This document shows, piece after piece, positions 25,771-25,813 of a DNA stretch of 64,000 nucleotides; position 1 is the stretch's first letter; each line of letters begins with the position of its first letter. The stretch is taken from the NCBI RefSeq assembly GCF_003334335.1, contig NZ_QOWQ01000024.1; one strand, written 5' to 3'. Below the pieces are notes generated by a model. The model did not search any database and had not been told where the DNA came from. It saw only the letters and a program-made list of their open reading frames with translations. Source of the DNA: Escherichia coli (GTDB lineage Bacteria; Pseudomonadota; Gammaproteobacteria; Enterobacterales; Enterobacteriaceae). The position numbers were made by a program, and so were the translations under genes.

Positions 25771-25787
25771 TTTTTTTTAACTCTCAC

Positions 25788-25813
25788 GCTTACCCTGAAT
25801 ATTCAGGGTAAGC
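25788..25813 (+). terminator. 26-bp perfect palindrome downstream of maeB, probable terminator hairpin
   Basis: GCTTACCCTGAAT|ATTCAGGGTAAGC, 18 nt after the maeB stop, preceded by T8 and followed by a weak U-tract (AGTTTAG). Confidence 0.45.

Follow-up and report, generated by a model that had tools for sequence, protein, structure and literature searches.

The idea that a protective stem-loop guards the 3′ ends left by Rho-dependent termination reportedly goes back to Peters and coworkers in 2012. Rho-dependent transcripts have been found to end just past stable stem-loops without U-rich tails, their 3′ ends being trimmed by PNPase/RNase II and rut sites being located downstream, and terminators may switch type in evolution through their U content (Dar & Sorek, 2018, NAR 46:6797, PMC6061677). 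A canonical intrinsic terminator, for its part, combines a stable G+C-containing stem-loop with a U-tract of about 7–8 nt. Here, we compare these systems with a perfect palindrome situated between maeB, which encodes the NADP-dependent malic enzyme, and eutS in Escherichia coli. We consider, with a probability of roughly 60%, that this palindrome is the 3′-terminal stem-loop of a monocistronic maeB mRNA, namely a decayed intrinsic terminator backed by Rho.

The palindrome downstream of maeB and its RNA hairpin

The window, i.e. the whole stretch of 64 000 nucleotides that was analysed, comes from E. coli K-12; over 471 bases surrounding the palindrome, it is 100% identical to MG1655-type genomes. 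The maeB–eutS spacer measures 292 nt in the window (Table 1). The sequence confirms the starting observation of the preliminary description, a T8 run and a perfect 26 bp palindrome within this spacer. The palindrome, GCTTACCCTGAATATTCAGGGTAAGC (25788–25813), consists of 13 nt arms that are 100% complementary with 0 bases between them. Its distance from the maeB stop, described as 18 nt, holds in the sense that the palindrome begins at the 18th base past the stop, with a gap of 17 bases; the nine bases between T8 and the palindrome are AACTCTCAC. The palindrome is the single occurrence in the window at up to three mismatches (0 of 100 shuffles matched) and the sole perfect palindrome with arms of at least 9 nt in the 64 kb, and arms of 13 nt arose in 0 of 200 block shuffles. 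Its size is far above chance expectation.

Table 1. Features of the maeB–eutS region, in window coordinates
Feature	Position	Strand	Basis
maeB CDS, NADP-dependent malic enzyme, 759 aa	23491..25770	+	ORF list; RefSeq annotation of identical K-12 DNA
maeB stop TAA	25768–25770	+	Sequence
T8 run, directly 3′ of the stop, within the short 3′ UTR spacer	25771..25778	+	Sequence; E. coli lineage alignment
Stem-loop: 5′ arm 25788–25798, loop AUAU 25799–25802, 3′ arm 25803–25813	25788..25813	+	Sequence; folding
Degenerate U-tract AGTTTAGC, 3 T in 8	25814..25821	+	Sequence; strain comparison
3′ ends mapped for primary transcripts that cover maeB alone	25818..25819	+	Yan et al., 2018, PMC6131387
Untranslated AT-rich spacer with reported Rho-dependent termination	25820..26062	+	Adams et al., 2021, PMC7815308
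Block conserved across Enterobacteriaceae, presumed eut promoter and leader	25957..26062	+	Alignment; function from position
eutS, first eut operon gene, downstream neighbour proposed to be shielded from maeB read-through	26063..26398	+	Sequence; RefSeq annotation

The RefSeq record NC_000913.3 carries no annotated feature, repeat or other, at the maeB 3′ end. An Rfam search at permissive E-values gave chance-level matches only, with no family at the hairpin, and the dyad core CCTGAATATTCAGG was not found in a literature search. A consensus promoter scan around the palindrome returned nothing, and a candidate sigma-70 promoter (TTGCGA…TATAAT, 25853–25885) was rejected on account of its 21 nt spacer. 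On the minus strand, a 51 aa ORF beginning with ATG (25803–25958) runs to a stop codon within the palindrome. We consider this ORF probably spurious, as it is AT-rich and of low complexity and spans a segment that is missing in Escherichia SCPM-O-B-8794. Further downstream, an imperfect inverted repeat, TGCGTTGCATA/TATGCACCACA (25913–25942), lies within the stretch TTCATGCGTTGCATATGAAAGTTTATGCACCAC, which is nearly unchanged in E. whittamii and MOD1-EC7003 despite diverged surroundings and is absent from SCPM-O-B-8794.

As sense RNA, the palindrome folds into an 11 bp stem closed by an AUAU loop. The hairpin by itself has a folding energy of about −18 kcal/mol, and with its context (76 nt in total) the value is −20.6 kcal/mol (z = −3.8 versus shuffles). 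The stem, of 11 bp in K-12 and 12 bp in most E. coli, contains 6–7 G–C pairs and reaches −18 to −20 kcal/mol; it is thus the stable G+C-containing stem-loop expected of a canonical intrinsic terminator. The U-tract is not: the K-12 RNA tail AGUUUAGC has 3 U in 8, and there is no upstream A-tract at the K-12 hairpin. Indeed, the preliminary description had remarked that a T-run precedes the dyad and none follows it, making it noncanonical in either direction, and this proves accurate, since the tails are AGTTTAGC on the plus strand and GTGAGAGTTAAAAAAAA on the minus strand and a consensus terminator scan requiring at least 5 T in 8 detected no terminator at the palindrome. The tail term amounts to 0.94 at the K-12 hairpin, compared with 4.0–5.0 in the terminators of neighbouring genera. 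A d'Aubenton-Carafa-type score, for which only the relative ranking is meaningful as the formula was combined with modern energy parameters, places K-12 at −33, E. whittamii at −3.5 and the terminators of Citrobacter, Klebsiella and Salmonella at +25 to +55.

RNA element or DNA dyad

A 65-mer around the palindrome is present in 5410 of the 5426 complete E. coli genomes, and 5246 of them (96.7%) contain a single exact copy of a 30-mer (TCAC plus the palindrome). The 65-mer search also reported a second locus per genome, which was discarded because it reflected a match of the palindrome with its own reverse strand, the 30-mer being single-copy. In most E. coli the palindrome extends to 28 bp (CGCTTACCC…GGGTAAGCG), C25787 pairing with a G at 25814 to give the 12 bp stem; K-12 carries a G→A change at 25814. 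Conservation across strains, proposed earlier as a check, therefore holds for the palindrome and fails for the T8 run: most E. coli lineages have TTCTTTTTT in its place and some have TTCATTCTT, and the K-12 65-mer is matched at 99% identity or more by 1166 of 5411 records. Read from the aligned lineages, T8 is what is left of TTCTTTTTT after one C was lost in the K-12 lineage. Confined as it is to the K-12-like lineage, it loses the link with the palindrome that the preliminary description had implied, and it has no demonstrable function or role of its own. T8 and AACTCTCAC would simply make up a 17 nt spacer holding the hairpin clear of the ribosome that terminates at UAA. Considering the footprint of the ribosome on mRNA, such a gap is about enough for a hairpin to fold without touching a ribosome positioned on the stop codon. 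Sister genera keep a similar stop-to-stem gap (17–20 nt) with a similar T-richness.

We aligned ten distinct Escherichia versions of the element and counted the 12-pair helix. Seven of the 12 pairs are invariant and four vary on one side, always to G·U on the maeB sense strand. Overall, 97.5% of the alignment cells are paired, compared with 43–50% when the partner is slid by one column. No double compensatory substitution occurs among the ten Escherichia versions, and the shuffle control was flat and uninformative with ten close relatives and one-sided variation; the structural argument consists of wobble-only changes, four events at most, and is not a proof by covariation. In the imperfect variants (F1022, MSB1_4I, MOD1-EC7003 and E. 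whittamii) the antisense hairpin is 4–9 kcal/mol weaker than the sense hairpin. The loop varies in both sequence and length (AUAU, UUUAUU, GAUUAUU and AGUAAUU) while the stem stays. Half-sites at a fixed spacing are not what is found: the arms of other Escherichia differ (CTG…CGG) and their centre is 6–7 nt instead of 4 nt, with RNA pairing kept. A change in loop length is harmless to a hairpin but shifts the half-sites of a protein-binding dyad, which favours an RNA element. Moreover, in MSB1_4I a glycosyltransferase gene parts maeB from eutS and the hairpin stays beside maeB, so that the element belongs to the maeB transcript and not to the eut promoter. The insert in this strain, a divergent ‘E. 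coli’, is a family-4 glycosyltransferase gene that is convergent with maeB (locus L089, 701–1771).

The preliminary description had also offered a protein-binding dyad that insulates the eut promoter region. In such a case the dyad, with its core CCTGAATATTCAGG, would be a DNA operator for a dimeric transcription factor or nucleoid protein that insulates or regulates the eut promoter. A perfect dyad of 26–28 bp in 96.7% of the complete E. coli genomes is what an operator might look like, the region is AT-rich and lies upstream of a regulated operon, and a genomic-SELEX peak for the RpoS holoenzyme has been placed in the eutS<maeB spacer (U00096.2 2574144, approximately window position 25746), at low resolution. 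However, beyond E. coli proper the symmetry is broken solely by changes that retain G·U pairs in the sense RNA, and the move of the centre from 4 to 6 or 7 nt alters both the spacing and the phase of the half-sites. The dyad also precedes the conserved eut promoter block by about 170 nt, and Citrobacter, Klebsiella and Yokenella share this block without having the dyad; where eutS is displaced, the dyad remains by maeB. To our knowledge, the half-site spacing does not fit the consensus sites of Cra, ArgR or LexA, which also counts against an operator. We regard this explanation as very improbable: the G·U changes confined to the sense strand, the variable loop and tail and a hairpin that follows maeB all speak in favour of an RNA element rather than a dyad bound by a protein.

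Turnover of the maeB 3′ flank

The 8 nt past the stem vary among E. coli (AGTTTAGC, GGTTTAGC, GGTTTGGC, GGTCCAGC and GGTTTTCC), reaching as low as GGUCCAGC, and the tail is fuller in E. whittamii: GATTTTTAT, also given as ATTTTTAT. Across Escherichia the RNA tails form a gradient, from AUUUUUAU in E. whittamii through GUUUUAUU, GUUUUCC and GUUUAGC to AGUUUAGC in K-12; written otherwise, the near-canonical GAUUUUUAUAUU of E. whittamii is followed by GGUUUUAUU and GGUUUUCC, then by GGUUUAGC and finally by the K-12 tail. The U-tail of the Escherichia hairpin thus appears to decay from E. whittamii, where U5 accompanies the hairpin, to the U-poor state of K-12.

We then compared 80 loci encoding the MaeB C-terminus, taken from species genomes. 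In the relatives in which maeB is linked to eutS (Citrobacter, the Klebsiella oxytoca group, Pseudocitrobacter and Yokenella) the spacer is mostly 153–160 nt long, and a canonical terminator starts 17–20 nt past the maeB stop, with GGCGCGGG-loop-CCCGCGCC and then a run of T5–T7. Salmonella has a maeB terminator composed of GGCGCAGG-loop-CCTGCGC and then T6, and Kluyvera has one with an A-tract, a hairpin and a T-tract. These canonical terminators and the Escherichia hairpin are equally far from the stop and have unrelated stem sequences; the canonical hairpins reach −14 to −18 kcal/mol, compared with −18 to −20 kcal/mol in E. coli. The spacer is alignable across genera from about 25957 on. The conserved block that starts there (CTTAGTGATCTACCTCACCTTTTAAA…TTGCCGAATTTTGTTATTTACTC…TTGTCACGAT) presumably represents the eut leader and a promoter dependent on EutR, as its position suggests; the coordinate of the Rho region discussed below (26008) falls inside it. 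Between the hairpin and this block (25814–25956) lie about 130–150 nt of extra AT-rich DNA that are specific to Escherichia, in which the spacer ranges from 236 to 292 nt; the RpoS-holoenzyme SELEX peak is listed in this spacer.

Judging from these alignments, the Escherichia maeB 3′ flank has clearly been replaced during evolution, and the maeB 3′ end looks to have been rebuilt repeatedly within the family. Enterobacter, Leclercia, Lelliottia and their kin carry one or two palindromic repeats (…CCCTCACCCTAACCCTCTCCC-N3–5-GGGAGAGGG…) in the maeB 3′ flank, and other genera have REP-like GCCGGATAAGCG units in place of the maeB terminator (repeat-bearing flanks: L035, L048, L057, L061, L064–L068, L081, L082 and L086, within the first 110 nt past the maeB stop). 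IS1 is present in or near the maeB–eutS spacer in three of few strains, at L005 (CUWW06) 533–866, L090 (19AR0656) 1672–2369 and L089 (MSB1_4I) 2511–3208. One of the three copies lies approximately 130 nt past the maeB stop, another between eutS and eutP, and the third is associated with a deletion of the hairpin, eutS and part of eutP; the AT-rich DNA between maeB and eutS may be a hot spot for IS1.

We may wonder whether the palindrome is itself a member or remnant of a repeated palindromic element (REP/BIME-like, or the end of a MITE), or else a terminator for antisense transcription from the eut side. Other Enterobacteriaceae do have repeats right after maeB, CCCTCTCCC…GGGAGAGGG in Enterobacter and Leclercia and REP-like GCCGGATAAGCG elsewhere, and the replacement of the Escherichia flank would agree with such an origin. 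Dispersed copies are nonetheless missing: the element is present as one copy per genome in the 5246 genomes, is unique in the window at up to three mismatches, is not annotated as a repeat in NC_000913.3 and has no match in Rfam. As for antisense termination, the antisense stem is followed by an A-run and not a U-run, the antisense strand folds worse in all variants and K-12 has no convergent gene. Both ideas strike us as exceedingly improbable.

Mapped 3′ ends, Rho inhibition and known systems

Mapping of the maeB 3′ end, which the preliminary description had called for, is available from published work. SMRT-Cappable-seq identified full-length primary transcripts that cover b2463 (maeB) alone (Yan et al., 2018, PMC6131387, Supplementary Data 1). 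In M9, the maeB end is at NC_000913.3 2576050: of the 52 reads from the transcription start site 11 end at this site and 0 pass it, and 12 end within 50 bp downstream (PMC6131387). The second sheet (the Rich condition according to the paper) places the end at 2576049 for two start sites, the first with 62 reads (37 at the site, three passing and two within 50 bp) and the second also with 62 reads (21 at the site, four passing and seven within 50 bp); in both sheets the maeB ends are labelled ‘novelTTS’, that is, absent from the known terminators used for comparison (PMC6131387). NC_000913.3 2575500–2576400 matches window positions 25468–26368 exactly, and on this basis the reverse-strand positions 2576050 and 2576049 correspond to 25818 and 25819, …GGGUAAGCAGUUU(A), 5–6 nt past the stem, the poly(A) tailing leaving a UUU or a UUUA end ambiguous and the method as such making no distinction between release and trimming. 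An end just past the stem is shared by canonical terminators and by the class of Dar & Sorek alike. A single study, in which reads were not numerous, is behind the sharp maeB 3′ end. Among the Term-seq ends of Adams et al. (2021, PMC7815308) there is none for maeB or eutS and none in the spacer between them, the TERMITe supplement has none for maeB or the spacer, and a literature search on maeB combined with terminator or Rho yielded nothing specific.

DirectRNA-seq with bicyclomycin detected a minus-strand ‘orphan’ Rho region at 2575860, i.e. window position 26008 (Adams et al., 2021, PMC7815308, Supplementary file 2). The upstream/downstream reads of this region are 161/21 in untreated cells and 195/140 with bicyclomycin (score 5.5, p = 1.5 × 10−13; PMC7815308); we reproduced the score as (140/195)/(21/161), which confirmed the order of the columns. 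Inhibiting Rho lifts the downstream/upstream ratio about 5.5-fold, from 0.13 to 0.72, corresponding to an apparent read-through of 13% and 72%, respectively, over 800 nt windows and with the reads assumed to originate from maeB. On this indirect evidence termination here does not look Rho-independent, and read-through into eutS/eutP increases when Rho is inhibited, at a region that these 800 nt windows locate 190 nt downstream of the mapped 3′ end. Part of the bicyclomycin effect could come from a spacer promoter silenced by Rho and not from maeB read-through. The spacer (66% A+T) contains 46 C versus 38 G over 25814–26062, and 25 C versus 15 G in 25914–26013; with this mild excess of C it is not a textbook rut site.

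In the reading that we prefer, the K-12 hairpin alone, as a decayed intrinsic terminator, would stop part of the polymerases, and those that pass would be released by Rho on the approximately 240 nt of untranslated, AT-rich spacer, slightly richer in C than in G, that precedes eutS. The exonucleases PNPase and RNase II would then shorten the resulting heterogeneous tails in the 3′-to-5′ direction as far as the base of the hairpin, and the hairpin would block these enzymes and stabilize the maeB message; the downstream reads induced by bicyclomycin would then start at maeB. The net result would be a sharp maeB 3′ end and an eut operon, inducible by ethanolamine, that is shielded from the constitutive transcription of maeB. 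The M9 counts, with 12 reads within 50 bp downstream versus 11 at the site, suggest diffuse termination followed by trimming. The earlier proposal of a noncanonical maeB terminator or stability hairpin is borne out by ends lying 5–6 nt past the stem, a U-poor tail and Rho-sensitive read-through.

A simpler mechanism would be a self-sufficient noncanonical intrinsic terminator, in which the hairpin and its short GUUU(A) tail release the polymerase at 25818/25819, possibly with the help of NusA or NusG, Rho having no real part and the bicyclomycin signal coming from other transcripts. It would account for sharp ends at 5–6 nt past the stem with 0–4 passing reads of 52–62, for a hairpin energy level with that of the canonical neighbours (−18 to −20 versus −14 to −18 kcal/mol), for an element with a canonical terminator as its ancestor, or its predecessor, at this position, and for the near-canonical tail still seen in E. 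whittamii. It accounts poorly for a tail with 3 U in the 8 nt past the stem and a score far under those of the canonical neighbours, for the free variation of this tail in E. coli, down to GGUCCAGC, which is unexpected for a release signal, for the increase of the downstream/upstream ratio from 0.13 to 0.72 on Rho inhibition and for the 12 versus 11 reads in M9. We therefore hold a terminator acting without Rho to be possible but rather unlikely.

The loss of the U-tract might even be adaptive, termination of maeB having been handed to Rho, or, as a variant, the symmetry seen in E. coli might reflect a second ligand acting at the DNA level. These ideas have in their favour only that read-through is sensitive to Rho and that the genes are kept as neighbours, and we find them improbable. 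If adaptive loss were true, maeB transcription would enter eut under limiting Rho or with an occupied spacer, and malic enzyme would be coupled to ethanolamine catabolism, with the two genes kept adjacent across Enterobacteriaceae. Under the decayed, Rho-backed terminator that we favour, the meaning reaches little beyond annotation: the hairpin would account for the insulation of eut from maeB, and the K-12 maeB transcription unit gains a defined 3′ end, NC_000913.3 2576049/50, which was ‘novel’ with respect to RegulonDB in 2018.

The maeB 3′ element belongs to a kind that has been described before, and a public table already lists where the transcript ends; our analysis contributes a classification, evidence for an RNA-level element linked to maeB, and the evolutionary series. 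Like REP/BIME 3′ stabilizers, the element is an extragenic palindrome at the 3′ end of a gene, able to block 3′ exonucleases, but it is single-copy, lacks the REP consensus and is not annotated as a repeat. With the canonical terminators of Citrobacter, Klebsiella, Salmonella and Kluyvera it shares its position 17–20 nt past the stop, its hairpin energy and its job, whereas the K-12 stem is unrelated in sequence, has 3 rather than 6–7 U in the 8 nt that follow and shows Rho-sensitive read-through. The resemblance to the class of Dar & Sorek is closer: a stable stem-loop of terminator size with neither a U-rich tail nor an upstream A-tract, a precise end a few nucleotides directly past this U-poor stem-loop, bicyclomycin-sensitive read-through and, less clearly, an untranslated spacer downstream with slightly more C than G. 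It differs from a pure case of this class in that three U are left at maeB, which may represent a ‘transition state’ of the kind that these authors mention, and the dependence on exonucleases is putative. The series that runs from the canonical terminators of sister genera through the U5 hairpin of E. whittamii to the U-poor, apparently Rho-backed hairpin of E. coli offers a usable test case for terminator turnover, and would be a natural example of the drift that has been proposed between intrinsic and Rho-dependent termination.
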